A stretch of 64,000 nt of DNA, from the sequence record PQ826431.1; one strand, written 5' to 3'. This document shows positions 1-52,092 of this stretch, one piece after another. Source of the DNA: a phage. The stretch's first letter is position 1; every line of letters begins with the position of its first letter. The notes beneath the pieces are model-generated. The model did not search any database and was not told the DNA's origin. It saw only the letters and a program-made list of their open reading frames with translations. The translations under genes and the position numbers were made by a program.

Positions 1-2
1 AG

Positions 3-149
3 GATGCAGCAAAACCTCTCCGCTTCCAAGCAGCTAAAGCTATTAAAGAGCAAGTAGAAGAATGGTTAGAAGAACATTATGAAGCTATGGAAGAAGAAAC
101 CCCTGCCGTGCAGAATACAGATGACGTTCCTAAAAAGATCGTAATCTAA
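3..149 (+). CDS. 3' end of an upstream gene (5'-truncated), hypothetical protein
   Basis: Open frame from window edge to TAA near 147-149; acidic C-terminus ...EEWLEEHYEAMEEETPAVQNTDDVPKKIVI. Confidence 0.4.
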   Translation, partial: DAAKPLRFQAAKAIKEQVEEWLEEHYEAMEEETPAVQNTDDVPKKIVI

Positions 150-38560: not shown

Positions 38561-39087
38561 TATTCAGCGTTCAACCCTTCCCCATGTTCTTGATGCCAAG
38601 CTTCATGGTGCAGAGGACACAGCCATAGAACATCTAACGGTTTATCATAATCACAATGATGAGCATGAACATCAACAGACCCACACACTTGGCAAGGCTG
38701 TTTTACTAACTTTCCATCTCGGAGTGCGTTACCTACAGCTATATGAGCAGAACGTTTTTTCGGATTCTTTTCGATGTAACGTTTCTTAGCTTCATTAGCC
38801 TTATCTTTACCTTTCCCTTTTGCGTAAGCCTCTTTCAAAGCTTTGCGCTCTGGGGTCTGATCTCTGCTTTTATCATACTCTTTGTAATATTCAGATTTAT
38901 CTTTACGATTCTGTTTAACATCTTTCTTATTACATTCCTTGCATTTATTGACGTGACCGTCAGCCATAGCTTTATGTTTGTAAAATTCAGTGAGGGGCTT
39001 TAACACCCCACACTTGAAACAAACCTTAGAAGCAATGCAGGAAGTTTCGACCATATTGCAGTCCAATAGGGGCAAATGGAATATCAT
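38560..39087 (-). CDS. HNH endonuclease
   Basis: N-terminal Cys4 ribbon (CFKCG...CKEC), C-terminal HNH-type motif VHAHHCDY...LWLCPLHHEAWH; ORF track extends to 39252 but real start is probably an internal Met (39087 or 39054). Confidence 0.6.
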   Translation of the reverse strand: MIFHLPLLDCNMVETSCIASKVCFKCGVLKPLTEFYKHKAMADGHVNKCKECNKKDVKQNRKDKSEYYKEYDKSRDQTPERKALKEAYAKGKGKDKANEAKKRYIEKNPKKRSAHIAVGNALRDGKLVKQPCQVCGSVDVHAHHCDYDKPLDVLWLCPLHHEAWHQEHGEGLNAE

Positions 39088-39958
39088 CGTCGAAGTCCAT
39101 TGGAGGTTCTTCTTGATTACTTGGAGTTGGTTCTGGTTGTGGTTCAGGTTTCTTAACTTCTTTCTTCTCTTCTTTCTTAGGCTGTTCTGCGGAACCACGA
39201 ATGGCAGCAGCAACTTTATCAGACAGAGCCAGAACTTTACGAGCAGAATCAATCAGATCTTCTACAGAGACAGTCTTAATGGTATGGTCTTTACAAGCAT
39301 TGAGAATAGCGTGACCAACAGATGCCCCAAGATCATAATCATTAATATCAACGCCACGAGATTCAGCAATTTCAGATTTCAGCGTGACAGTTGCAGATTG
39401 AACAACCCCAGCGATATCGAAAGCATCGCCTTTAACACCATTACGAATCAGTTCCAGTGCACCATTTACTGCGTGACCAGTTTCCAGACCTACAGTATCA
39501 CGTTTTTTATAGGATTGCTTAGGAGCAGCATCGTTGGAACCTTTATTGCCAGAAGATTTGTTAGACTTCTGAACACCATCGGTAGACAATACTGTAATAC
39601 GAGATTTTTTAGTATTGTAGTAAGTTTTACCGCCTTTATTATCAACGCGATCAATATCAATACTTACTTCTACACCTTTTTCAATAGTGATCCAATTATC
39701 ACCTTCTTTGACTTGCAGGTTTTCATAACCTTCTTTCAGTTCAATGTCACCAAGAGAAATCCAAACACCTTTCTCATCTGGTTTAGCACCTTTCTCTTTC
39801 AGAACAAGAGAGGCTCGGTGAGTTGAAACAATCGTTTTTCCTTCCCAATGAAAAGTTTTAGGTTCAGCGAATTTATCCAGTTTAACGTAGTCTACGATAC
39901 CAGTTGCATAAGTTACGGTTTTGCCTTTACGATCAGTTTCAGTATTAATTACGGACAT
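39026..39958 (-). CDS. ssb: single-stranded DNA-binding protein
   Basis: Pro/Glu-rich linker followed by PPMDFDDDIPF (E. coli SSB acidic tip), then a 15 aa extension. Confidence 0.55.
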   Translation of the reverse strand: MSVINTETDRKGKTVTYATGIVDYVKLDKFAEPKTFHWEGKTIVSTHRASLVLKEKGAKPDEKGVWISLGDIELKEGYENLQVKEGDNWITIEKGVEVSIDIDRVDNKGGKTYYNTKKSRITVLSTDGVQKSNKSSGNKGSNDAAPKQSYKKRDTVGLETGHAVNGALELIRNGVKGDAFDIAGVVQSATVTLKSEIAESRGVDINDYDLGASVGHAILNACKDHTIKTVSVEDLIDSARKVLALSDKVAAAIRGSAEQPKKEEKKEVKKPEPQPEPTPSNQEEPPMDFDDDIPFAPIGLQYGRNFLHCF

Positions 39959-39974
39959 TATTATCTCCTCTACA

Positions 39975-40367
39975 TTACATTAATTTTGCACAGAAAGAAC
40001 GGAGTCTTTCCATATCATCTTGCTCTAACAGGTATTTACCTTTACCTATTCCAACTCCAATTTCACCATTAGGAAAATGAACTATTTGCACTGGGAAACC
40101 TCCGAGTTTAATTGTGGCAGCTTTGCCTTCTTCGTCTATAACGTTTCGGATTGTATCTTGCAGTGAAATGAATTCTTTGTTTGTAACAGTGGTTTCAATT
40201 ATTTCAGATTTTTCAACACGAGCAGTTAGCTTCTTGTTTCCACCTTGAATAACCAAAATTTGAAAATAAAAAGAGTTGTCAAGACCTACAACATTTTTCT
40301 CAACTAGTGTCAAACTGGTATAGTTTCCATAAACAGTTTCAACAGCTATCTTAGAACGTTCAGTCAT
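39975..40367 (-). CDS. hypothetical protein
   Basis: 130 aa ORF. Confidence 0.3.
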   Translation of the reverse strand: MTERSKIAVETVYGNYTSLTLVEKNVVGLDNSFYFQILVIQGGNKKLTARVEKSEIIETTVTNKEFISLQDTIRNVIDEEGKAATIKLGGFPVQIVHFPNGEIGVGIGKGKYLLEQDDMERLRSFCAKLM

Positions 40368-40412
40368 TGAATGCTATCCTATCATAAAATGTTTAATATT
40401 GTCAAGCTTTAA

Positions 40413-41006
40413 TTACCAAGGAATATCATCTTCTTCCAATCTGGTATCTACTTGAGGTGGACGTGGAACCTTAACCTCTTTCACAAAACGAAGATATGGG
40501 AAACGTGTAGCAATTTTAATAACGTGTTTGGCATCTTCTCTAACGTCTTTGTGCAAGAAGCAGATCCCTGTTTCCAAGGTTGTTTCAAAATCTTTAGAAT
40601 AATAACAATCCTTCCCATCAAATGCAGCCTGGCAGATGGACAGATCGAACTCATTTAGAAAGGTTGTCATTACGCTTGGTTCCATAATCATAAGGTTGCA
40701 AAGCTGACCATCACGTTCAAACTCAAAAACGTGTTTAAGACCAGTAACACCTTCATAATTGTCAGAAGCCTCTTTGTTTCCTAGTTTACGAATATTGGTT
40801 CCCATTAAAGCAGATGCAATTAATCCTTGTATTTGTTCTTCCGTCCGATGTGCAGGAAGGGATGTATAGAAATCCAGATCACGTCCAGCAATATCAAGAA
40901 TACGCCAATCACGAACAGCACCGCCAGCCAAGACAGAATTAGGATCAGCAATCTTTAATACGGTAAGAATTTCTTTGGCAATATTGATTTGTTTTGATTT
41001 AGTCAT
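40413..41006 (-). CDS. Pol-beta-like nucleotidyltransferase (CCA-adding/poly(A) polymerase head-like)
   Basis: AGGAVRDWRILDIAGRDLDF matches GGxVRD...DxD signature; C-terminus ends EEDDIPW. Confidence 0.45.
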   Translation of the reverse strand: MTKSKQINIAKEILTVLKIADPNSVLAGGAVRDWRILDIAGRDLDFYTSLPAHRTEEQIQGLIASALMGTNIRKLGNKEASDNYEGVTGLKHVFEFERDGQLCNLMIMEPSVMTTFLNEFDLSICQAAFDGKDCYYSKDFETTLETGICFLHKDVREDAKHVIKIATRFPYLRFVKEVKVPRPPQVDTRLEEDDIPW

Positions 41007-41217
41007 GGATACGCTCCACAGTTACTTTTACAACATCGTCCATATTAATCTCATCCCCCAAGACCTCAATAACACCTTCCTCATAAAGTCGAGCACATTC
41101 TTCCCACACTTCAGCTTCCGTCATTCCACCTGCAATCTTATTTGCAAGACCTTTAATAACATCTTCATTTTGTTCATCAACAAGAATTGAAACATTAAAG
41201 CTCACTAATTTACGCAT
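40999..41217 (-). CDS. hypothetical protein
   Basis: 72 aa ORF with AAGGAG RBS. Confidence 0.3.
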   Translation of the reverse strand: MRKLVSFNVSILVDEQNEDVIKGLANKIAGGMTEAEVWEECARLYEEGVIEVLGDEINMDDVVKVTVERIHD

Positions 41218-41395: not shown

Positions 41396-41607
41396 TAATC
41401 TTCCTCCAGATCAATTTCATTATAACAATGTATGCAGAAACCATCATTGTGCATATGTTGTTCATAAGACATATCTTTACCACAAGACCAACAACGGATA
41501 TCCCCATCGTCCCATTCACGTTCTTCTTCACCTTCAAATTCATCTGGTAGATAAGGCATACCAAAATAATCTAAATCGTAACTCATATCTTCTCCTATCG
41601 AGTCCAC
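41395..41607 (-). CDS. small acidic zinc-ribbon protein
   Basis: CWSCG ... CIHC pairs of cysteines. Confidence 0.35.
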   Translation of the reverse strand: MDSIGEDMSYDLDYFGMPYLPDEFEGEEEREWDDGDIRCWSCGKDMSYEQHMHNDGFCIHCYNEIDLEED

Positions 41608-42191
41608 TCCTTACGTTGTTCAATATGTTCAAGCATATCATTATACAATGTTTTAAGATGTGGAACAACTCTTTGATCTTCTGTTTCAAAAAACTTTGTA
41701 AGCTGCTCTGCTTTAGCTTTTAGCCAACAAAGATGTGCCTCAAGTTCAGTATCAAAACGTCCGAGCGTTATAATACGACCATCTACTTTTATATGGGCTT
41801 TATATTTCTTACGATCTTTTTCGTAATGGAAGCCTACCATAGTGCCATGAGATCTTTTACTTACCCTGTAAGCTAAAAACTTGTTAAGATCCCCTGTTAC
41901 TAAAAGGCAGGTGGCGGGAGAGTAAACTCTCCCTCCTATAATATCTTTATCGAGTTCTAAGTTTTCCCAGTTGTCCCAAGTTTGCAACCAAGCGTAGAAG
42001 TTGGAAAACAGTTTCCATTCTTCACAGACCGTCACTCCGTGATAACAAGGATCACGTTCTTGTTGGCAAGGGGAGTAACACCTCCCCAACATAGCCATCC
42101 ACTTCATATAATGAGGAGTTAATTTCTTACTGCCAGGCAGTGTACTTTCACCCTCCAAATCATTAATACCTTCACCATACACAGTAAGCAT
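41595..42191 (-). CDS. AP2-domain DNA-binding protein, possible homing endonuclease
   Basis: C-terminal GFHYEKDRKKYKAHIKVDGRIITLGRFDTELEAHLCWLKA resembles AP2 fold; adjacent to intein-containing polymerase. Confidence 0.35.
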   Translation of the reverse strand: MLTVYGEGINDLEGESTLPGSKKLTPHYMKWMAMLGRCYSPCQQERDPCYHGVTVCEEWKLFSNFYAWLQTWDNWENLELDKDIIGGRVYSPATCLLVTGDLNKFLAYRVSKRSHGTMVGFHYEKDRKKYKAHIKVDGRIITLGRFDTELEAHLCWLKAKAEQLTKFFETEDQRVVPHLKTLYNDMLEHIEQRKEWTR

Positions 42192-42218: not shown

Positions 42219-45200
42219 TCAATGACATGTGGCCCAGGAATTACCCACATCGTATCCGGCAGTAAGCTGAACGTTAAGATTGTAAAATTCTCCAGCCTTA
42301 GTAACAGCTAAAGCAGCAAGTTCACCTGCCCGACTATAGGCTGTAAACCATCCACCTTTGGGAGATTCATGAATGTTAGCCCAAATTTGCCCTGTCTCTT
42401 TTTCCTTATTATGCTTCCATTCTTCGACTTTAGCAAGGCATTCTTTATCAATTTTCTTTTGTTCTTCAGGATCGTCTACTTTCTTCCAACCTAATGATTC
42501 AGGTGAAAACCATTTGAATTCTACAAGGTTACGAGAAACTTCAAGCTGGGCTTCATCGTGATATGCAATCATTTGTTGCACGAAGTCTTTATTCTTCCAG
42601 TCATCTTTAAAGAAGTCAACACTTAGCCCTTCTTCTTCGATCATGTCATCATAAATAACCATTGCACGTTTAGCACAGATAACCCCACCGCTTTGGAACA
42701 GAGAGTTAAGAATCGCGTGAGCAGAACGAGTAGGAACCTTACGACCGTCAATACCCAAAACATATTGTTTACCAGTCTTAACCCAGAAATCGTTTAAACG
42801 TTCTTTAAGACGCGCCAATGGGAATGCAGCTTCCCAGAAAGCATCGAACACCAGTTGCCCTGTGTATTTATCGCTACCAATTGTTTTAGCAACCTTGTCG
42901 GCTTGTGCACCATAGGTAATACCATACTTAACAGATTTAGCAGGACTACGTTCAAATTTACGTCCAATAGTTTCAGTGATACGTTTTGCCATCATTGTGT
43001 GAACATCATTAGGTTTCTCTAACAACAGAGCGTTACAATATTCGTGTGGCTCCGGCTCGTACCGCCAACAGTTTCCTGTGATGGTAATGCAGTCTTTCTG
43101 ACGCATGACCCACGTACCAAGTTCTGTTTGTGGACACCAAACATCCTCTACACCCCACTCTTCAATAGTCAAACTTTGAACAGGAATGTGAGAGCGGTTA
43201 GTCAATGTTGCCACTTTTACTTTCTGCTCTTTTGTATTGAAAGCTACAGAGATATTGCCTCCATGCACCAGGTACGAGGCAGTTAAAGCTGCTTCAAAAA
43301 GTTCACCTGGGTTCTGCGCCCAACGCCAAACAGGTTTTTGTTTATGTTCGTGCCAGTAACCATCTGCAATCAAGAAACCTTCCAAGAAAGCTACACGCTC
43401 GGCATGAGACATATTAACTACACGTTCTACCCACGGAACATCCCATTTACCTTGTTGAACAGAAGTTAAACTATTTACCTGATCTTGTTCCATGTTAAAT
43501 GGAGCATTACAAATAATGTTATCTCCTGTGCAAAGCTCGGCAGTTGTTCTGACTTTAGGCACATAAGTATTCCCTTTACTACGGGTATTAACATACCAAC
43601 GGTGATCTGCTGTTGCACGGTAAGTGTGTGATTTCCCTTTAATCTCAAACGTCTTACTATTTTTATAGAAGACCTTACCTTTTACTTTAGTCCATTCTTT
43701 CAGACCTGTTTCAGCATTGTACCCTAAAATCTCATCCCCTTCCTTCAGGTCGTGATATCCTACCCAACCTTTACGAGTCAAAGCTTGAGCATCCATCGGC
43801 ACACAGTAATGCGATTCAATTTTTGCTTCCAAAGAGTCGAAGTCGTAACCAATCTGGAAGTATTTAGGAACCTCTACACCAAACAAGTTACGCATCTCCC
43901 ATCCAAACAAAGATGTGACACGAGGAATATTAGCTACAGATCTGTGCTTCATACGAGAGGTTGCAGCATCACATGTAGCGGCTGGGGTAGGAATACGACC
44001 ATCCGCCCTTACTGCGGCTAAGAAACCTTTATCATATTCTTGGTCTTCTTCATCTTCTTCCCAATCAGCACCGCCACCTAAAATAGAGTTCCTACGATGC
44101 TTATACGTTAAGTATTCTACAATCTGTGTAGCATAAGGAAATTTCTCACCCAAAGCTTGCAGGTTAGGACAAATTTCTTTTTCCTGACCTTTGGTAAAAC
44201 ATGGGTTAGTCAATACTTTAAGACCGCGACCCTTACCTTTTGCTATACGCTCTTGAATCTTCCTCTCCAAGGTTTCCGGTGTGCACTCCAGATGATCACA
44301 ACGATCCTGACAAAAATTAGAAGACAGAGTTTGCTCAACGTAAGCTCGAATACCTTTCTGAAGTTCTTCCTCGCTCTTTTTAATCTTGGTGCCAGATTTA
44401 AGAGTCAAGTCTTTATCTTTATATTCAGACGGTACCCAACCTAATCCTACAAGCCAGTTTTTAATATGGGTTGTATCGTTCAATGTTGCAGGAATGTTAG
44501 GATCACATAGAGGCTCATCTGCTGCAACTGGCAGTTTCCACTCTTTCCCCAGCATAACTAACCACCAATCGCCATCCCTCTCTTCCAAATGACCATCATG
44601 TTTCTTAGCAAAATTGATCATATGGTTAGTTGGCTCTAAGTTCTTTTTAATTTGCAACTTAGGTGGAATAAAAGCCTTAAGATAACCTTTTGTTGCTGGT
44701 TTAGGTGGCAAAATAGGCTCAACGAGTAAACGAAGACGCTCCATTTCTGCATCCAAAAAAGCAAGGTTCTCTTCTGCTTGTTTCATGTTAAAAGCAAACC
44801 CACGGTGTTCCTGGCGTGTAATAATGTCTGCTACACGTTGTTCAAGTTCAAATGGACCTTCCCATTTATCATAATCACCCCATTCTTCCATAAGGTAATT
44901 ATATACGCTCGTATTGGCTTTGTTGTCATAGATACAGTAATAAAGCATATCAGCAGCAAAAGTCTTAAATCGATCTTCTTCTGGAATCTCTTTACGGAAA
45001 TCTATTTTTACATCACCCCCTGCCTTTCGAGAAAGTGCTGCCAAGCTATGTCCTGATTTGCCCTCAATCTTTCGATCTGGGTTTAACACTTTACTCAAAA
45101 TCAAGGAGTCAATAAGTTTTACCTTATTTTTGCCCCACGTATTATATTTAACACTGTAATCTAAACCATAAAACAGTTTTGTAGCCAACCAGTCATAGTT

Positions 45201-45551
45201 GATACCGTTGTGAGCCACAGCCATTTCAACCAGATATTCAGGTTTATCTTTAAAATAACCTTCATGATTAATAAAGTCTGGGAAATCTTTTAGTTGAAAA
45301 TGTGTGTAATCTTGCGCCACATACTCTTTAAGAACATATGTGTATTTACCATCTGACTCTTCATAAGGACGCCCATCAAAGATGTATTTAGGGCCATCGT
45401 GGAAAGCTACTATTTCTCCTGTTTCATGGTTCTCTAAGACAATACAGTGCATTTGAAATGTGTCTTTGAGACGATAAGGACTAGCTAAATAATCGATAGT
45501 GTCATTATTCAACAATCCGTTTGCTTCAATATCCCATGTAAACTTACTCAC
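42219..45551 (-). CDS. family A DNA polymerase (3'-5' exo + polymerase), intein-containing
   Basis: Exo I WDIEANGL; motif A GYDFDSLEAKI; motif B RSPAKSVKYGITYG; motif C AYHDEAQLEV; 245 aa insertion between motifs A and B. Confidence 0.85.
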   Translation of the reverse strand: MSKFTWDIEANGLLNNDTIDYLASPYRLKDTFQMHCIVLENHETGEIVAFHDGPKYIFDGRPYEESDGKYTYVLKEYVAQDYTHFQLKDFPDFINHEGYFKDKPEYLVEMAVAHNGINYDWLATKLFYGLDYSVKYNTWGKNKVKLIDSLILSKVLNPDRKIEGKSGHSLAALSRKAGGDVKIDFRKEIPEEDRFKTFAADMLYYCIYDNKANTSVYNYLMEEWGDYDKWEGPFELEQRVADIITRQEHRGFAFNMKQAEENLAFLDAEMERLRLLVEPILPPKPATKGYLKAFIPPKLQIKKNLEPTNHMINFAKKHDGHLEERDGDWWLVMLGKEWKLPVAADEPLCDPNIPATLNDTTHIKNWLVGLGWVPSEYKDKDLTLKSGTKIKKSEEELQKGIRAYVEQTLSSNFCQDRCDHLECTPETLERKIQERIAKGKGRGLKVLTNPCFTKGQEKEICPNLQALGEKFPYATQIVEYLTYKHRRNSILGGGADWEEDEEDQEYDKGFLAAVRADGRIPTPAATCDAATSRMKHRSVANIPRVTSLFGWEMRNLFGVEVPKYFQIGYDFDSLEAKIESHYCVPMDAQALTRKGWVGYHDLKEGDEILGYNAETGLKEWTKVKGKVFYKNSKTFEIKGKSHTYRATADHRWYVNTRSKGNTYVPKVRTTAELCTGDNIICNAPFNMEQDQVNSLTSVQQGKWDVPWVERVVNMSHAERVAFLEGFLIADGYWHEHKQKPVWRWAQNPGELFEAALTASYLVHGGNISVAFNTKEQKVKVATLTNRSHIPVQSLTIEEWGVEDVWCPQTELGTWVMRQKDCITITGNCWRYEPEPHEYCNALLLEKPNDVHTMMAKRITETIGRKFERSPAKSVKYGITYGAQADKVAKTIGSDKYTGQLVFDAFWEAAFPLARLKERLNDFWVKTGKQYVLGIDGRKVPTRSAHAILNSLFQSGGVICAKRAMVIYDDMIEEEGLSVDFFKDDWKNKDFVQQMIAYHDEAQLEVSRNLVEFKWFSPESLGWKKVDDPEEQKKIDKECLAKVEEWKHNKEKETGQIWANIHESPKGGWFTAYSRAGELAALAVTKAGEFYNLNVQLTAGYDVGNSWATCH
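43071..43805 (-). mobile_element. intein (245 aa) in DNA polymerase with LAGLIDADG-like motif
   Basis: Starts CVPMDAQALTRKGW, block B TADH, LAGLIDADG-like AFLEGFLIADGY (about 43356-43391), ends ...CITITGN with +1 Cys; boundaries checked against codons. Confidence 0.7.
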
Positions 45552-48669: not shown

Positions 48670-48948
48670 TTAAAATGGTTCGTTAGTCTCCATCATATAT
48701 TCTGCTTCTAGTTCTTCCATGTGCTTTCTAAATTGGAAAGCAATTTCTGCTACAGTTACATTTAAATCTTTTTCAAAAACTTCTGTAGAGCCTTCGTAAA
48801 AACGAATACCGTCAATTAAAAGCCCTCCGTGGTAATCCCAATCACTTTCACGAGAAAGCGGGTTAGGCTCTTCATAATAGTAATCCACCTCCACGACTAA
48901 GGCTTTCCCGTTACAAGTGGTGTATTCAAAATCAAAAGTGTTAATCAT
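48670..48948 (-). CDS. hypothetical protein
   Basis: 92 aa ORF. Confidence 0.3.
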   Translation of the reverse strand: MINTFDFEYTTCNGKALVVEVDYYYEEPNPLSRESDWDYHGGLLIDGIRFYEGSTEVFEKDLNVTVAEIAFQFRKHMEELEAEYMMETNEPF

Positions 48949-49892
48949 TATAGCTCCTCAAATAAAAGTCTACGACGCTCATTCAACACATCAATGTGAT
49001 AATGAGTCCTGACATACTTAGCTAATGCTAATCCTTTCTCCATGCAAACATCGGGAGCACTTAATAAGTATTCCGTAATATCTTTCCACTCGGAAGGTGT
49101 TTCAGCAAAGAACAACAGATCTTTAAACTCTTGTGTATGATAATTCTCACGAGGAGAACAGATCAAAGGTAAACCCTTAGCACCTGCCTCAAGAATTTTA
49201 AGATTGCTTTTTGCATTATTAAACACGTTATCAATCAGTGGCGCAAGACTTATTTGATGACCATCGTAAGATTCCATGTAGTTGGCATATGGTCTTACAC
49301 CTTCATAAACACAAGTTGGTGCTACATTTTCTCTGATTACAGACCATTCACGACTACTTAAAACTTCAGAATCCCTACGAAAACCACATATTGTAAGATC
49401 TTTACCAAAATCGGGCAAGATAGCCAAATCTTGCTTATGTGTTTCACTTCCAGCCCACACTAATGGAGTTTTGGAGTAGCGATCACGGGTCAACACAAAT
49501 TGACCTTCGTCATAAGGAAGTCCATTAGGGATTATGTGCACATTATCATTGTATTGTGAAAGTTCAACTTGCAAGGCAGGTGTCGTAGTTGTAACAAGAT
49601 CACTGTGCTCTAAAAACCATTTTAAATGTTCACGAATACCTGATTCAAAAATACCTTCTAACATGTGTCCTTTTGGAATAACTAAAGAGTCATCCAAATC
49701 CATAACCATTTTAAAGCCTAGGTTTTTAAGGGCTAAAAAGCCCTCTTTACCTTTTGTTGGCACTCCGTTAAAAACGAAAACATTGTATTTAGGTTGTGAA
49801 GAGAACTGCCTTGAGTAAGGCAGCACTACCCTATGGAAATCGCAGACACTATAATTGATTCCGTTACGATTGTCAAGAATTATTTGTCCCAT
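48948..49892 (-). CDS. glycosyltransferase-like protein, paralog 1
   Basis: C-terminal LKILEAGAKGLPLICS; clear paralogy with next gene. Confidence 0.45.
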   Translation of the reverse strand: MGQIILDNRNGINYSVCDFHRVVLPYSRQFSSQPKYNVFVFNGVPTKGKEGFLALKNLGFKMVMDLDDSLVIPKGHMLEGIFESGIREHLKWFLEHSDLVTTTTPALQVELSQYNDNVHIIPNGLPYDEGQFVLTRDRYSKTPLVWAGSETHKQDLAILPDFGKDLTICGFRRDSEVLSSREWSVIRENVAPTCVYEGVRPYANYMESYDGHQISLAPLIDNVFNNAKSNLKILEAGAKGLPLICSPRENYHTQEFKDLLFFAETPSEWKDITEYLLSAPDVCMEKGLALAKYVRTHYHIDVLNERRRLLFEEL

Positions 49893-49899
49893 ACTTCAC

Positions 49900-50847
49900 C
49901 TACAAACTTTCAATAACCTGGCGTCGCAACTCGTTTGCATCTGCCAGATTATAATGTGTTCGAACATGTTCAGCCAAGAACAAGCCACGATCTTCCCGAT
50001 AGTTTGGATTGCGAAGAAGCTTAACAATTTCGTAATGCCATTCTGCTTTATTCTCTGCGTAAGCAACAGCGCGAGCATCTACAGGGTTAAAATAAGGTAA
50101 TACCTTAGAACAAACAATCGGAATACCTTTTGCTCCAGCTTCTAGGATTTTGAGATTACTTTTACAATTATTAAAATCATTATCTACCAAAGGAGCTATA
50201 GCAATAGCATGACTTTCGTAAACACTCATGTAATTATCTAAATCTTTTACAGCGGCTTTATATTTGGCATTTGGTAAATTTCTGCGAATCTTAATCCACT
50301 CTTGTCCCGTGATGCTCTGCGATGCTTCATACCCCGCAATAGTAAGAAGTTCATCATCGAAAGTATTAGAGACTAGTCGTAAATCGGGTTCGTGACTAGC
50401 ACCGCCAGCCCATACAACAGGGGTACCGGATGAACGATCATTTGACAAAGTGAATTGTCCGCTATCAAAAGGAAGTGCATTTCGGATCACAACGACATTT
50501 CTATTTAAGTGACGGATCTTGTATGCCAAGTATTCCGTAGTTACAATAACCACATCAGCAAGCTTAACCATAGCCACAATAGCATGAGTGTTTGACTCGT
50601 ATAGACTCGCTAAGTAATGTTCTGGATTAAGTTGGTAGAAATCATCTAAATCTACAACAACCTTAACACCTTGACGTTTCAAAGATAAAACGTATTCTGC
50701 ACCTTTAGAGTGGATACGGTTAAACACAACAATATCTTTCTTAGGTTGAAAATTATTGTTGTTAAATGGCATAACAATACGATGATAGTCACAACCACTA
50801 TGAGGTTTTGCATCAATTTTTAGTTTAGACCATTTTTTATTTGACAT
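49900..50847 (-). CDS. glycosyltransferase-like protein, paralog 2
   Basis: ORF track 49900-50886; likely start at internal ATG (MSNKKW) preceded by GAGGAGG; shares CDYHR, VVDLDD, LKILEAGAKGIP with paralog 1. Confidence 0.45.
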   Translation of the reverse strand: MSNKKWSKLKIDAKPHSGCDYHRIVMPFNNNNFQPKKDIVVFNRIHSKGAEYVLSLKRQGVKVVVDLDDFYQLNPEHYLASLYESNTHAIVAMVKLADVVIVTTEYLAYKIRHLNRNVVVIRNALPFDSGQFTLSNDRSSGTPVVWAGGASHEPDLRLVSNTFDDELLTIAGYEASQSITGQEWIKIRRNLPNAKYKAAVKDLDNYMSVYESHAIAIAPLVDNDFNNCKSNLKILEAGAKGIPIVCSKVLPYFNPVDARAVAYAENKAEWHYEIVKLLRNPNYREDRGLFLAEHVRTHYNLADANELRRQVIESL

Positions 50848-51520
50848 GTGCCAGTGCCTCCTCATAGGAAATTCGGATTTTCCCATTTTTAATATCCTCT
50901 AAAGATGCTTTATATTCTTCCCAGTTAATCCCGATAGCAGCTTCTTTCTCTTCTTTTGTCAGATTAGCAAAAGGCATAGGGTTGTTTCCAAAAACATCGT
51001 CTGGGTGGATATAAGCCATGATACGAAGTGGACAAGGTGTTGCCTGAATACCATGATTCAAACCAGCAGCTTTCAAACGGTGTCCCCATTCAGCATCTTC
51101 AAAACCATAGCCGTGAGTGTAAGGACGGAAATAACCCATCTTCTCAACAACGGCACGAGAATACATTGCAAATTGACACATTGCAAGTTCCCAGAGAATA
51201 ACTTCTCCTTTGCTTCCAACAACTTTATCTTTGAAATACTCCGGCATACCAAAGAAATCCCATCCTCCAGAGACAGCTTGATCTACAAAGTATGTTTCCC
51301 ATCCCTCCATGACTGGGTAGCAATCGTCGTCAAAAATAAACCAATAATCATAACCTTCTTCATAAAACTGGTGCATAAGTTCATTCCTGGCATAAGCTAC
51401 ACCTTTACGATCTGGATCGTTGAATACTCGAAAATCTGCACGTGGATCTGTTACAAGGTAGTCTTTAAGTGGACGGACACCTACAGTGATAACACCCACT
51501 CCAATTTTAATATTTTCCAT
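50837..51520 (-). CDS. glycosyltransferase (GT-A-like, DxD)
   Basis: FIFDDDCYP acidic motif after hydrophobic strand. Confidence 0.4.
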   Translation of the reverse strand: MENIKIGVGVITVGVRPLKDYLVTDPRADFRVFNDPDRKGVAYARNELMHQFYEEGYDYWFIFDDDCYPVMEGWETYFVDQAVSGGWDFFGMPEYFKDKVVGSKGEVILWELAMCQFAMYSRAVVEKMGYFRPYTHGYGFEDAEWGHRLKAAGLNHGIQATPCPLRIMAYIHPDDVFGNNPMPFANLTKEEKEAAIGINWEEYKASLEDIKNGKIRISYEEALAHVK

Positions 51521-51528
51521 TTTCTCTC

Positions 51529-52092
51529 CTAAATAGTTTTACTGTGATCATGACAGTGTAATAAATGATGTATAGACCGTTGAGGATTTGTTTGACCTAA
51601 TCTGTAAATGTGAAACAGATACATTCCCCGCATCAATCCTAACCTCTTTCCTTTTTCATGTAAAGTGCGAGAGAAAATTAAGTCGAATTGGATAGATTTT
51701 TCTTCGAAAGGAATTTCATTCCACAATGATTTTCTAAAAAGCAAGAAGAAACCTGCCAGAGGTGTTCCGAAAGGAACTTCTTCAACACTCACTTTATGAT
51801 ATTCTCTTGCAATCTTAGCATATTCTATATGGTTTAGAATATCTGGATCATCGTTAATTTGGTTAGAGAAAAGCTGATAACCACTGCCTAACCTGTTACA
51901 AGTTGCACCTATTACATCAAAAGGCGGGTTTGACATAACAAGCTCTTCAAGCATAGATGGTTGATCAGGTAGGAGGAACATTGTATCGGTATCTCTTAAA
52001 CACACCCAACTATCATCTGGAAGAACGGCAATGGCTTCATTGATAGCCTTGCCGATATTTCCTGTCAGATAGGGAGTAATATAATAAATCAT
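51529..52092 (-). CDS. putative glycosyltransferase-like protein
   Basis: LRDTDTMF DxD-like motif. Confidence 0.3.
   Translation of the reverse strand: MIYYITPYLTGNIGKAINEAIAVLPDDSWVCLRDTDTMFLLPDQPSMLEELVMSNPPFDVIGATCNRLGSGYQLFSNQINDDPDILNHIEYAKIAREYHKVSVEEVPFGTPLAGFFLLFRKSLWNEIPFEEKSIQFDLIFSRTLHEKGKRLGLMRGMYLFHIYRLGQTNPQRSIHHLLHCHDHSKTI

Follow-up and report, generated by a model that had tools for sequence, protein, structure and literature searches.

Which function might a phage assign to a small nucleotidyltransferase (NTase) that stands alone as a catalytic domain and whose C-terminus resembles the tip of SSB? This question is raised by a gene located in a 64-kb stretch of DNA, hereafter referred to as the window, which stems from a Phapecoctavirus-like coliphage. 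Phage replication modules very commonly encode small stand-alone proteins of the "poly(A)-polymerase head domain" type.

Genomic setting of the nucleotidyltransferase gene

The NTase gene is transcribed from the minus strand and begins with an ATG codon at positions 41006-41004. The coordinates given for the 197-aa reading frame in an earlier, sequence-only reading of this DNA proved to be exact, and the strand, which had not been stated there, can now be added. The following elements make up the locus.

40413-41006, minus strand: NTase coding sequence, 197 aa (open reading frame and translation), with its stop codon at 40413-40415
41014-41017, minus strand: GGAG Shine-Dalgarno/ribosome-binding site, read from the sequence, 7 nt upstream of the NTase ATG
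39975-40367, minus strand: gene for a conserved 130-aa protein (phrog_16560), between the NTase and SSB genes
39026-39958, minus strand: gene for an SSB-like protein, two genes from the NTase gene

The NTase start codon overlaps the stop codon of an upstream 72-aa open reading frame (40999-41217; overlap ATGACTAA), an arrangement that suggests translational coupling. GenBank labels the gene [quoted passage not shown], relatives with 95-99% nucleotide identity carry the same gene under the annotation "nucleotidyltransferase", and its product matches PHROG 10174 (E = 6.5e-63). The genes for the NTase, the 130-aa protein and the SSB-like protein form a syntenic trio, with the 130-aa gene found at position +1 in eight non-identical loci. 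The SSB-like protein contains the tip PPMDFDDDIPF (aa 285-295, nt 39074-39106), which equals the C-terminus of E. coli SSB, the identity extending over 12 residues; a further 15 aa (nt 39029-39073) extend the protein beyond this tip.

At a cut-off of E <= 1e-3, the NTase family comprises at least 446 clusters, most of which consist of proteins of 175-230 aa, and many stand-alone phage homologues are present in BFVD. A scan of the longer family members found no informative fused domains. The family resides mostly in T7-type replication modules: when genes on the same strand and no more than eight genes away from the NTase-family gene were counted in 63 non-identical loci, a gp4-like primase-helicase was present in 33 of them and a family A polymerase in 30, plus seven in a second cluster. 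A ligase co-occurs with the NTase genes as well, as does a candidate 5'-3' exonuclease (so designated by inspection of its sequence only), and in phage LKD16 the family member lies between the genes for the helicase and the ligase. Members were also found in small Vibrio phages (~47 kb) and in ICP1. The synteny with the replication module may in part reflect the common ancestry of related myoviruses and not functional coupling.

Predicted fold and active site

The AF2 model of the NTase, built from 140 sequences, attained a pLDDT of 90 (45.8 when it was built from ten close homologues alone), and it confidently predicts the head-neck fold of class II CCA-adding enzymes and poly(A) polymerases. 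The parts of the catalytic domain are as follows.

40473-41006, minus strand: folded catalytic domain with a class II-like head and neck, aa 1-178 (predicted structure)
40866-40928, minus strand: motif A, A27-GGAVRDWRILDIAGRDLDFY-47 (residue conservation; lies within the region in which the profile matches class II enzymes of the PDB)
40722-40724, minus strand: E95 in the strand VFEFE, candidate third catalytic carboxylate, assigned from general Pol-beta architecture and not by residue-level superposition; 97 of the 140 family members have an acidic residue here
40632-40649, minus strand: motif-B-equivalent F120-D-L-S-I-C125, in the place of RRDLTIN in Cca; Gad2 has the matching FDFTVC
40497-40538, minus strand: motif-D-equivalent E157-D-A-K-H161-V-I-K164-I-A-T-R-F-P170 (sequence inspection)

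The signature GGAVRD occupies residues 28-33 and is followed by DLD at residues 43-45. Across the 140 family members, G28, G29, D43 and D45 are invariant, and A27, A30, R32, D33, W34, Y84 and K164 are conserved in at least 90% of the sequences. Motifs B and D depart from those of Cca, the correspondence having been drawn from colinearity and inspection and not by superposing structures residue by residue: the NTase has EFD in place of the RRD of motif B (family consensus F-x-x-S-I-C), and the arginine of the EDxxR sequence in motif D is replaced by His or Tyr throughout the family (consensus H/Y-x-x-K; E-D-A-K-H in the NTase). H161 and K164 occupy the place of EDPLRVLR in Cca, and the Gad2 residue that is aligned to K164 is the invariant K155.

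Both the Pol-beta-type head with its GGAVRD...DLD signature and the absence of the usual body domains had been proposed previously from the letters of the DNA. The predicted fold and the invariant GG and DxD residues support the first of these proposals, and the second agrees with a model whose fold stops near residue 178 and whose residues 181-197 are disordered. Searching PDB sequences with the single NTase sequence returned noise only (abscisic-acid receptors, E = 0.3). A toxin-like identity of the MenT, AbiEii or MNT type was rejected on the basis of fold ranking and context; the combination of toxin-antitoxin NTases as closest structural neighbors and an adjacent antitoxin gene was not found.

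Profile relationship to Gad2

As judged by profile comparisons, the closest characterized relative of the NTase is the catalytic domain of Gad2 and not a CCA-adding enzyme. With hhalign, the NTase family aligned to a Gad2 alignment over 133 columns (Prob 96.6%, E = 4.8e-10), covering Gad2 residues ~17-159 only, and to a single Gad2 sequence with Prob 92% and E = 6.4e-7. Against the E. coli Cca sequence, the alignment was limited to 24 columns in motif A (Prob 28.8%), a contrast in which a 40-sequence profile, along with the single Gad2 sequence, is set against one Cca sequence. A BLASTP comparison of the two proteins was not significant; the link to Gad2 is detectable by profiles only. Likewise, the Pfam model Gad2 (PF26128) did not match the NTase in either the precomputed data or a local scan, and faint or weak precomputed matches to this model are present in three relatives (P0085, P0108 and P0009).

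Both proteins are encoded by phages and have in common the elements AGG...DLDxY, a Q-x-I/M strand, the sequence F-D-x-[ST]-x-C and the conserved Lys. They differ in size and setting: Gad2 homologues comprise 355-474 aa and possess an extra C-terminal domain of ~230 aa (ending in ...REVPKEEY) that is missing from the NTase, and they are encoded in the anti-defence locus of temperate Firmicute phages (Bacillus SPbeta-like phages, a Brevibacillus prophage), whereas the NTase gene belongs to the replication module of a lytic coliphage. Gad2 is needed for escape from Gabija and is itself a predicted NTase (bioRxiv 10.1101/2023.05.01.538930), for which, as of February 2026, a mechanism had yet to be established (PMC12904381).

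The C-terminal tail

Two segments follow the folded domain.

40431-40472, minus strand: linker of low confidence, aa 179-192, KVPRPPQVDTRLEE (drop in pLDDT; variable among homologues)
40416-40430, minus strand: D-D-I-P-W tip, aa 193-197, similar to the SSB C-terminal tip (SSB-Ct) (sequence, homologue alignment)

The NTase terminates with RLEEDDIPW, that is, with an acidic run, a hydrophobic-Pro-aromatic sequence and a free carboxylate, and the AF2 model indicates a disordered C-terminus, as the pLDDT amounts to 65 for residues 181-190 and to 47 for residues 191-197. The same design, an acidic run and a hydrophobic-Pro-aromatic sequence on a disordered linker, characterizes SSB-Ct (MDFDDDIPF in Gram-negative bacteria). 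The two differ in the terminal residue (Trp in the NTase, Phe in SSB-Ct), in the number of tails (one per presumably monomeric enzyme, four per SSB tetramer) and in their carrier, which is an enzyme in the one case and an OB-fold ssDNA binder in the other. The window contains 235 open reading frames of 50 aa or more; among these, the sequence [DE][DE]IP[FWY] occurs only in the NTase and in the SSB-like protein, and the NTase is the sole one with a free DIP[FW] end.

All ten close homologues (59-98% identity) have kept P196 and W197 unchanged at the C-terminus, while their linkers differ from one another in both length and sequence. A D-I-P-W terminus is also found at 36% identity in Citrobacter phage Tr1 (KPKDIPW, where basic residues precede DIPW) and, following a wholly changed linker, in two further relatives with 35% (P0014) and ~26% (P0085) identity. 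Termini of the type [ILVM]P[FWY] are present in six of 150 family representatives, with 0.13 expected (binomial P = 6e-9; enrichment P-values presuppose independent sequences, an assumption that holds only approximately). The tail is thus more than a product of chance. The likeness to the SSB tip had already been pointed out in the sequence-only reading, and the conserved tip, the disordered linker and the SSB-like protein with its E. coli-type tip two genes away corroborate it.

About 90% of the NTase family has no SSB-tip-like tail, and those members that possess one are scattered among tail-less nearest neighbors. The Justusliebigvirus orthologue, which is found in the same gene order, does not carry a tail although the SSB of this phage has DDDIPF. 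Since most members, Justusliebigvirus included, do without it, the core function does not depend on the tail. We had also considered that the tails of the NTase and of SSB might co-vary within one genome, a notion that fails generally: Justusliebigvirus and a second group of phages (L006/L010-type) keep DDD[IV]PF on their SSB, and their NTases end in NNEEFKI, EFMDEI and SPDVFNF. A literature search for phage NTases with an SSB-like tail, for the phAPEC8 nucleotidyl transferase and for 2la3 retrieved nothing relevant.

Possible functions of the tailed enzyme

The reading that we favor, albeit tentatively, is that of a Gad2-like stand-alone NTase, predicted to be catalytically competent, which is docked to its partner through mimicry of the SSB tip. 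The enzyme would be expressed within a T7-type replication module (primase-helicase, family A DNA polymerase, SSB) and would possess, in place of a nucleic-acid-binding body domain, a flexible linker of ~18 residues ending in D-I-P-W-COOH. This tip would insert into the SSB-tip-binding pocket of a partner, for which a host SSB-interacting enzyme or, as in T7, a subunit of the phage replisome are candidates. Docking would bring the catalytic domain to ssDNA or to DNA-end intermediates, and the NTase might then transfer nucleotides, with either a 3' end or the docking partner itself as the acceptor. Such a transfer could shield phage replication from host nucleases or from DNA-end-sensing defence, in a manner akin to that of Gad2.

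It is possible, though unlikely, that the tail has no host target and acts within the phage replisome as a T7-style accessory on the polymerase or the primase-helicase, or that it auto-inhibits the enzyme as an acidic pseudo-substrate in the nucleic-acid-binding cleft until it is displaced. The NTase module resembles the T7 replisome in its gp4-like primase-helicase, its family A polymerase and its several acidic-aromatic tails; three such ends are found in the module (on the SSB-like protein, the NTase and a 92-aa open reading frame beside the primase-helicase gene), the DnaB-like helicase of a related locus ends in DDRVPF, and gp2.5-like SSBs end in DDSLPF or DDSIPF. We know of no NTase in the T7 system. 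The tails of the T7 helicase gp4 and of the T7 SSB gp2.5 share one docking site on the gp5 polymerase (PMC12339929). However, these T7 tails are of the ...DGDF/DTDF type, whereas the tails described here copy the host SSB tip; the tip of the SSB-like protein is identical to that of the host over 12 residues, which points to host partners. An auto-inhibitory role finds little reflection in the AF2 model, in which the tail is left undocked on the domain (pLDDT < 50).

That the protein is a minimal tRNA NTase or poly(A) polymerase, which would act on the 3' ends of RNA, in tRNA of the phage or of the host, by repair or tailing, and whose C-terminal tail would be incidental, appears quite improbable. 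The NTase does have the head fold and motif A in common with class II CCA-adding enzymes and poly(A) polymerases (E. coli Cca, PcnB, PDB 1miv and 3aql), it has kept E157-D158 of the EDxxR sequence, 21 of the 140 family members match Pfam PolyA_pol (PF01743) at E <= 0.01, and RNA repair by CCA-adding enzymes of phages is generally accepted (PMC7824862). However, class II enzymes comprise ~400 aa and hold their tRNA substrate with body and tail domains, neither of which is present in the 197-aa NTase; PDB class II sequences are matched by the profile in motif A only, and both the RRD of motif B and the arginine of motif D are replaced. For the NTase itself, the PolyA_pol match (13.9 bits, E = 0.07) remains below the gathering threshold of 23, as do all CCA/PcnB matches in NCBIfam relative to their thresholds, and the family profile lies much closer to Gad2 than to the one Cca sequence used for comparison. 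The DNA-replication gene context likewise speaks against RNA repair, as does the presence of the family in ~47-kb Vibrio phages and in ICP1; no tRNA genes were found within the 64-kb window. The role in tRNA CCA repair or tagging that had been suggested in the sequence-only reading consequently loses ground. A stand-alone protein of comparable size is known from Streptococcus pneumoniae (NP_344798.1, PDB 2la3; 191 aa, "CCA-adding enzyme head domain"), but it is bacterial and only 13% identical to the NTase.

The tail might instead serve as a decoy that fills the SSB-tip pockets of host enzymes such as ExoI, RecQ, PriA or RecJ and thereby blunts host repair, nucleases or an SSB-sensing defence, with the NTase activity being unrelated; we see in this a rather slim prospect. 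Competition for the SSB-tip binding site had also been raised as an idea in the sequence-only reading. The tip is a close copy of the host SSB tip at a free C-terminus, and since the tip of the SSB-like protein is buried by its 15-aa extension, the NTase alone offers a free DIP[FW] end. Moreover, the sensing of phage SSBs has been reported for several defence systems (PMC12904381). Yet a single tail per enzyme would make a weak competitor of the abundant, tetrameric SSB, the strong purifying selection on the active site implies that catalysis matters, and the specific recurrence of the same type of tail on the NTase family and on Gad2 argues that the tail targets the enzyme and is not a decoy in its own right.

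A coincidental resemblance, or another purpose such as that of a protease degron, is hardly credible: the tail is missing from ~90% of the family and in Streptococcus mutans the three terminal residues LPF of SsbA suffice as a ClpXP degron, but this degron is reported to be strain-dependent and not to be recognized in other bacteria (PMC5143411), and the conservation of the Pro and Trp residues, the enrichment and the host-matched use of IPW/IPF in enterobacterial phages versus LPF in Firmicute Gad2 are better accounted for by mimicry of the SSB tip.

SSB-tip-like termini in Gad2 proteins

Gad2 is a validated anti-defence protein to which phage head-domain NTases are tied by profile homology, and both groups recurrently carry tails that match the SSB tip of the host; the homology and the shared tails render the docked, Gad2-like NTase a concrete hypothesis that is cheap to test. 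If it holds, the NTase would represent a first case of an enzyme that hijacks the SSB interaction hub through tip mimicry and would add a targeting principle to those of phage counter-defence; if the tail is irrelevant, the gene is an unremarkable member of a family that databases already annotate. It is conceivable, if doubtful, that SSB-tip mimicry is a general targeting principle of Gad2-like phage NTases. The tip (IPW/IPF in enterobacterial phages, LPF in Firmicute Gad2) would then enter the SSB-tip pocket of a host protein involved in defence or in the processing of DNA ends, and the enzyme would nucleotidylate this protein or the DNA 3' end that it holds, thereby disarming DNA-end-sensing immunity such as Gabija. 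A general mimicry of this kind would explain the mechanism of Gad2.

An acidic ...PF motif falls within the final five residues in 22 of 120 Gad2 proteins, compared with 0.58 expected. Many of these tails run one to three residues past the PF. The canonical SSB-tip pocket needs a free carboxylate and might hence not accept such tails. In their type, the acidic ...LPF tails of Gad2 match the Gram-positive SSB tip, as represented by DISDDDLPF of B. subtilis SsbA (PMC5531588).

A Small Nucleotidyltransferase Gene in a Phage DNA Replication Module

The window belongs to a Phapecoctavirus-like coliphage (phAPEC8-type, Stephanstirmvirinae) with 95-99% nucleotide identity to phages nieznany, Mt1B1_P17 and EF1-1. 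The nucleotidyltransferase (NTase) ORF proposed in the sequence-only reading is present at 40413-41006 and is located on the minus strand; its product contains the anticipated GGAVRD...DLD signature (AGGAVRD, residues 27-33; DLD, residues 43-45, in the translation) and has the C-terminus ...VDTRLEEDDIPW. A GGAG ribosome-binding site is positioned 7 nt 5' of the ATG, and this start codon overlaps the stop codon of the preceding 72-aa ORF (ATGACTAA), an overlap that suggests translational coupling of the two genes. The public assembly index has this exact protein sequence in 214 blocks. The gene is labeled 'nucleotidyltransferase' or 'putative tRNA nucleotidyl transferase / poly(A) polymerase' in GenBank/RefSeq.

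Gene order around the NTase gene, from the primase-helicase down to the endonuclease
1, minus strand, gp4-like primase-helicase (DnaB_C and Toprim)
2-3, minus strand, 143-aa ORF, then DNA methyltransferase
4, 42219-45551, minus strand, family A DNA polymerase
5, 41595-42191, minus strand, free-standing HNH endonuclease (phrog_953, E = 3e-73)
6-8, minus strand, three small ORFs between the HNH endonuclease and the NTase
9, 40413-41006, minus strand, NTase (197 aa, ATG start)
10, 39975-40367, minus strand, conserved 130-aa protein (phrog_16560)
11-12, minus strand, SSB-like protein, then endonuclease (ORF start near 39053)

This setting recurs. When neighbors at most eight genes away on the same strand were counted in 63 non-identical related IMG/VR loci, the commonest families were the gp4-like primase-helicase (33/63) and family A DNA polymerase (30/63, plus seven loci in a second cluster); homing endonucleases, DNA ligase and a putative 5'-3' exonuclease (assigned by inspecting its sequence alone) were also frequent. 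In LKD16, a structural homologue of the NTase sits between helicase and ligase.

The 130-aa phrog_16560 protein, for which Pfam gave no match, is always encoded between the NTase and SSB genes in eight non-identical Stephanstirmvirinae-like loci and could be a partner of either product. The 45-nt gap between its ORF and the NTase stop codon contains a promoter-like sequence (40376-40405, minus strand: TTGACA, 18-nt spacer, TAGGAT, with TG), which may be a chance occurrence because such sites are not enriched in the region (15 found vs 19.1 expected in shuffled sequence).

The NTase Family Has a Conserved Active Site and a Predicted Pol-beta-type Fold

Single-sequence evidence for the identity of the NTase is weak: the Pfam PolyA_pol match fell below its cut-off (13.9 vs 23 bits) and a PDB sequence search returned noise only. 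Its PHROGs matches are to families named 'nucleotidyltransferase' (phrog_10174, E = 6.5e-63). When 1.84 billion cluster representatives were searched in full with HMMER, 446 clusters passed E <= 1e-3. Their lengths are almost all 175-230 aa, and the family therefore consists of stand-alone proteins; many phage homologues of 170-220 aa, including ICP1 ORF223 and phiKMV-group proteins, are also found in BFVD.

In an alignment of 140 sequences, G28, G29, D43 and D45 are invariant, conservation reaches 90% or more at A27, A30, R32, D33, W34, Y84 and K164, and position 95 (Glu in the window protein) is acidic in 97 sequences, a pattern that indicates an active enzyme. Since AlphaFold2 reached a pLDDT of only 46 with 11 sequences, we used this larger alignment and obtained a model (pLDDT 90.1, pTM 0.84) whose fold covers residues 1 to ~178, with pLDDT dropping to 65 and then 47 across residues 181-197. 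Both the Pol-beta fold and the catalytic carboxylates, on which the sequence-only reading had staked its assignment, are found in the model and the alignment, and the assignment as a predicted Pol-beta-type fold stands.

A Remote Relationship to the Catalytic Domain of Gad2

Gabija anti-defence protein 2 (Gad2), which SPbeta-like phages encode, has 400 aa and an NTase domain predicted by AlphaFold; SPbetaL7 becomes Gabija-sensitive without it, and a co-expressed Brevibacillus laterosporus homologue blocks Gabija (bioRxiv 10.1101/2023.05.01.538930). Its mechanism was listed as not elucidated in a February 2026 review (PMC12904381). Precomputed annotations of three relatives of the window NTase contain Pfam PF26128 'Gad2', weakly in one (P0085) and faintly in two (P0108, P0009). 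With the verified B. laterosporus sequence as reference (supplementary table 10 of preprint 10.1101/2023.05.01.538930), the NTase family profile matched the single Gad2 sequence over 122 columns (Prob 92%, E = 6.4e-7) and a 40-sequence Gad2 alignment over 133 columns (Prob 96.6%, E = 4.8e-10; Gad2 residues ~17-159). Both share AGG...DLDxY, a Q-x-I/M strand, F-D-x-[ST]-x-C and a conserved Lys (K164 in the NTase, K155 in Gad2). Pairwise BLASTP was not significant, the window NTase itself has no Pfam Gad2 match, and it lacks the C-terminal domain of Gad2 (~230 aa); by these comparisons it is thus distantly related to the Gad2 catalytic domain and does not belong to the Gad2 family. According to a 2026 preprint, a Pseudomonas phage NTase adjoining primase/helicase is toxic at high induction, and in some phages this protein has been given a Gad2-family annotation (10.64898/2026.09.15.751885).

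A Recurrent SSB-tip-like C-terminus

The resemblance of the NTase C-terminus to the SSB tip, noticed from the sequence alone, was borne out as a conserved tip on a variable linker predicted to be disordered. Among the 235 window ORFs of at least 50 aa, [DE][DE]IP[FWY] occurs only in the NTase and in the SSB-like ORF two genes downstream. Ten close homologues (59-98% identity) all terminate in P196 and W197; D193, D194 and I195 vary little or not at all among them, and the linker (about residues 178-192) differs in sequence and length. More distant proteins end alike: the NTase of Citrobacter phage Tr1 (36% identity) in ...SPVHSKPKDIPW after a longer, unrelated linker, and other family representatives in FPDDIPW (P0014, 35%), SSNDIPW (P0085, about 26%), DDGIPF (P0108), ESIPY (P0031) and KPIPF (P0145). 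[ILVM]P[FWY] termini occur in 6/150 representatives, where composition predicts 0.13 (binomial P = 6e-9, assuming independent representatives). The tail is missing in about 90% of the family, including the Justusliebigvirus orthologue (terminus NNEEFKI) despite its identical NTase/130-aa/SSB arrangement; every tail-bearing member has tail-less nearest neighbors, so that the motif was repeatedly gained or patchily retained.

Genuine Gad2 proteins carry comparable tails. Many have a variable acidic appendage beyond the conserved end of the C-terminal domain (...REVPKEEY), and P[FWY] lies within five residues of the end in 22 of 120 homologues (P0160-P0279) vs 0.58 expected if the dipeptide were as frequent there as in the protein bodies (P about 4e-28, assuming independence). 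These represent 21 distinct tails, 17 in acidic context (e.g., DSEELPFL, DEDDILPFS, NADELPF*, LSDDAPF*). Only five stop exactly at PF; most run 1-3 residues further, and a pocket needing a free carboxylate might not accept such tails. The ...[L/D/A]PF appendages resemble DISDDDLPF, the terminus of SSBs from Gram-positive bacteria such as B. subtilis (PMC5531588); tail flavor therefore tracks the host, with LPF in Firmicute-associated Gad2 and IPW/IPF in enterobacterial phage NTases.

The SSB-like protein of the window carries ...PSNQEEPPMDFDDDIPF, whose 12-residue tip equals the E. coli SSB C-terminus, and in most relatives it really terminates at this tip. In the window (39026-39106, minus strand) it runs 15 residues (APIGLQYGRNFLHCF) past DFDDDIPF, through codons that reach into the beginning of the next ORF, which encodes the endonuclease (start near 39053). 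This extension, which would mask the free carboxylate of the tip, is also present in Mt1B1_P17, Tr1 and muut; a stop codon directly follows DIPF in EF1-1 and in loci L004-L014 and L091-L093.

Acidic Pro-aromatic tails are common to several replication proteins of NTase-bearing phages: gp2.5-like SSBs end in DDSLPF or DDSIPF, a DnaB-like helicase in DDRVPF, and phrog_862 proteins (roughly 225-245 aa) in DDVPW, KDIPW or EDTPW. Naturally occurring tails of this kind thus include some that end in Trp.

Contigs of NTase-bearing phages with such tailed helicase, SSB and phrog_862 proteins
L078, 3062-3904
L029, 727-1416
L035, 7134-7805
L044, 7807-8544
L028, 16841-17545
L037, 18808-19515

Immediately upstream of the primase-helicase gene, a 92-aa ORF (48670-48948, minus strand; phrog_4240) ends in ...EAEYMMETNEPF, the third acidic-aromatic tail of the module; its orthologues (L004, L005, L007, L008, L010) have similar endings (ETNESF, ESNEYF, YDNEGF).

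Possible Functions of the Tailed NTase

The findings thus describe a stand-alone, class II-like NTase core that looks active, is encoded in a replication module and is homologous to the Gad2 catalytic domain; the protein has a conserved SSB-tip-like end on a disordered linker, and Gad2 proteins carry analogous tails. We propose, as a tentative but quite possible reading, that the tip docks where SSB tips bind, in a pocket on a host SSB-interacting protein or on a phage replisome subunit; that docking would make up for the absent substrate-binding domains and bring the enzyme to intermediates with ssDNA or DNA ends; and that the enzyme would there nucleotidylate a 3' end or the docking partner and so keep nucleases or DNA-end-sensing defence away from phage replication.

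It is unlikely, though worth serious consideration, that the tail acts inside the replisome or is auto-inhibitory. T7-type modules with the NTase typically hold several proteins with acidic-aromatic ends, and for T7 a single docking site on the polymerase is taken to serve the tails of both gp4 and gp2.5 (PMC12339929).

We give a rather low probability to a minimal tRNA/RNA 3'-end enzyme, which would match the annotation. As first noted, the usual body domains are absent: the protein ends after the neck, without the tRNA-holding body and tail domains. Motif B reads KRRDLTINA in the E. coli CCA-adding enzyme (Cca) vs NEFDLSICQ in the NTase (family consensus F-x-x-S-I-C), and motif D reads EDPLRVLRVARF vs EDAKHVIKIATRF; in the latter region H/Y161 and K164 are conserved in the family and the E-D pair is not. 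These correspondences rest on inspection and colinearity, because the profile alignment to the single Cca sequence covers 24 columns in motif A only (Prob 28.8%). The 64-kb window has no tRNA genes, and the replication-gene neighbors in the 63 loci point away from tRNA. The suggested role in tRNA repair or tagging is consequently disfavored by the altered motifs, the missing domains and the gene context, and the NTase is probably not a tRNA CCA-adding enzyme.

Similarly improbable is a pure decoy for the SSB interactome. Coincidence or a degron is hardly credible as the source of the SSB-tip likeness: S. mutans has an LPF ClpXP degron, but it is strain-restricted (PMC5143411).

Because the gene and family already carry annotations, and comparable small phage NTases have been labeled Gad2-family, the enzyme as such is not new. 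Three things appear to be new: the conserved, recurrent SSB-tip mimic on the NTase family, the parallel tails on genuine Gad2 proteins, and the quantitative link that ties minimal replication-module NTases to the catalytic domain of Gad2. None of them was reported in the literature retrieved by targeted searches. Together they open the Gad2 mechanism to direct testing.

Mobile Insertions and Flanking Genes

Compared with the intein-less Mt1B1_P17 polymerase (otherwise 99-100% identical), the family A DNA polymerase gene contains a precise in-frame 245-aa insertion (residues 583-827; ~43071-43805, minus strand) that begins with Cys, ends with Asn followed by Cys, and includes a LIADGY motif. 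The insertion is an intein bearing a LAGLIDADG-type endonuclease signature; in this gene Pfam recognized DNA_pol_A alone. The HNH endonuclease gene (41595-42191), between the polymerase and the NTase operon, is present in the window, EF1-1 and nieznany and missing from Mt1B1_P17 and the commonest metagenomic versions. Together with the endonuclease after the SSB gene, the module carries three mobile insertions. Directly upstream of the primase-helicase module are four consecutive genes (48948-52092, minus strand) called glycosyltransferases in the nieznany RefSeq record.
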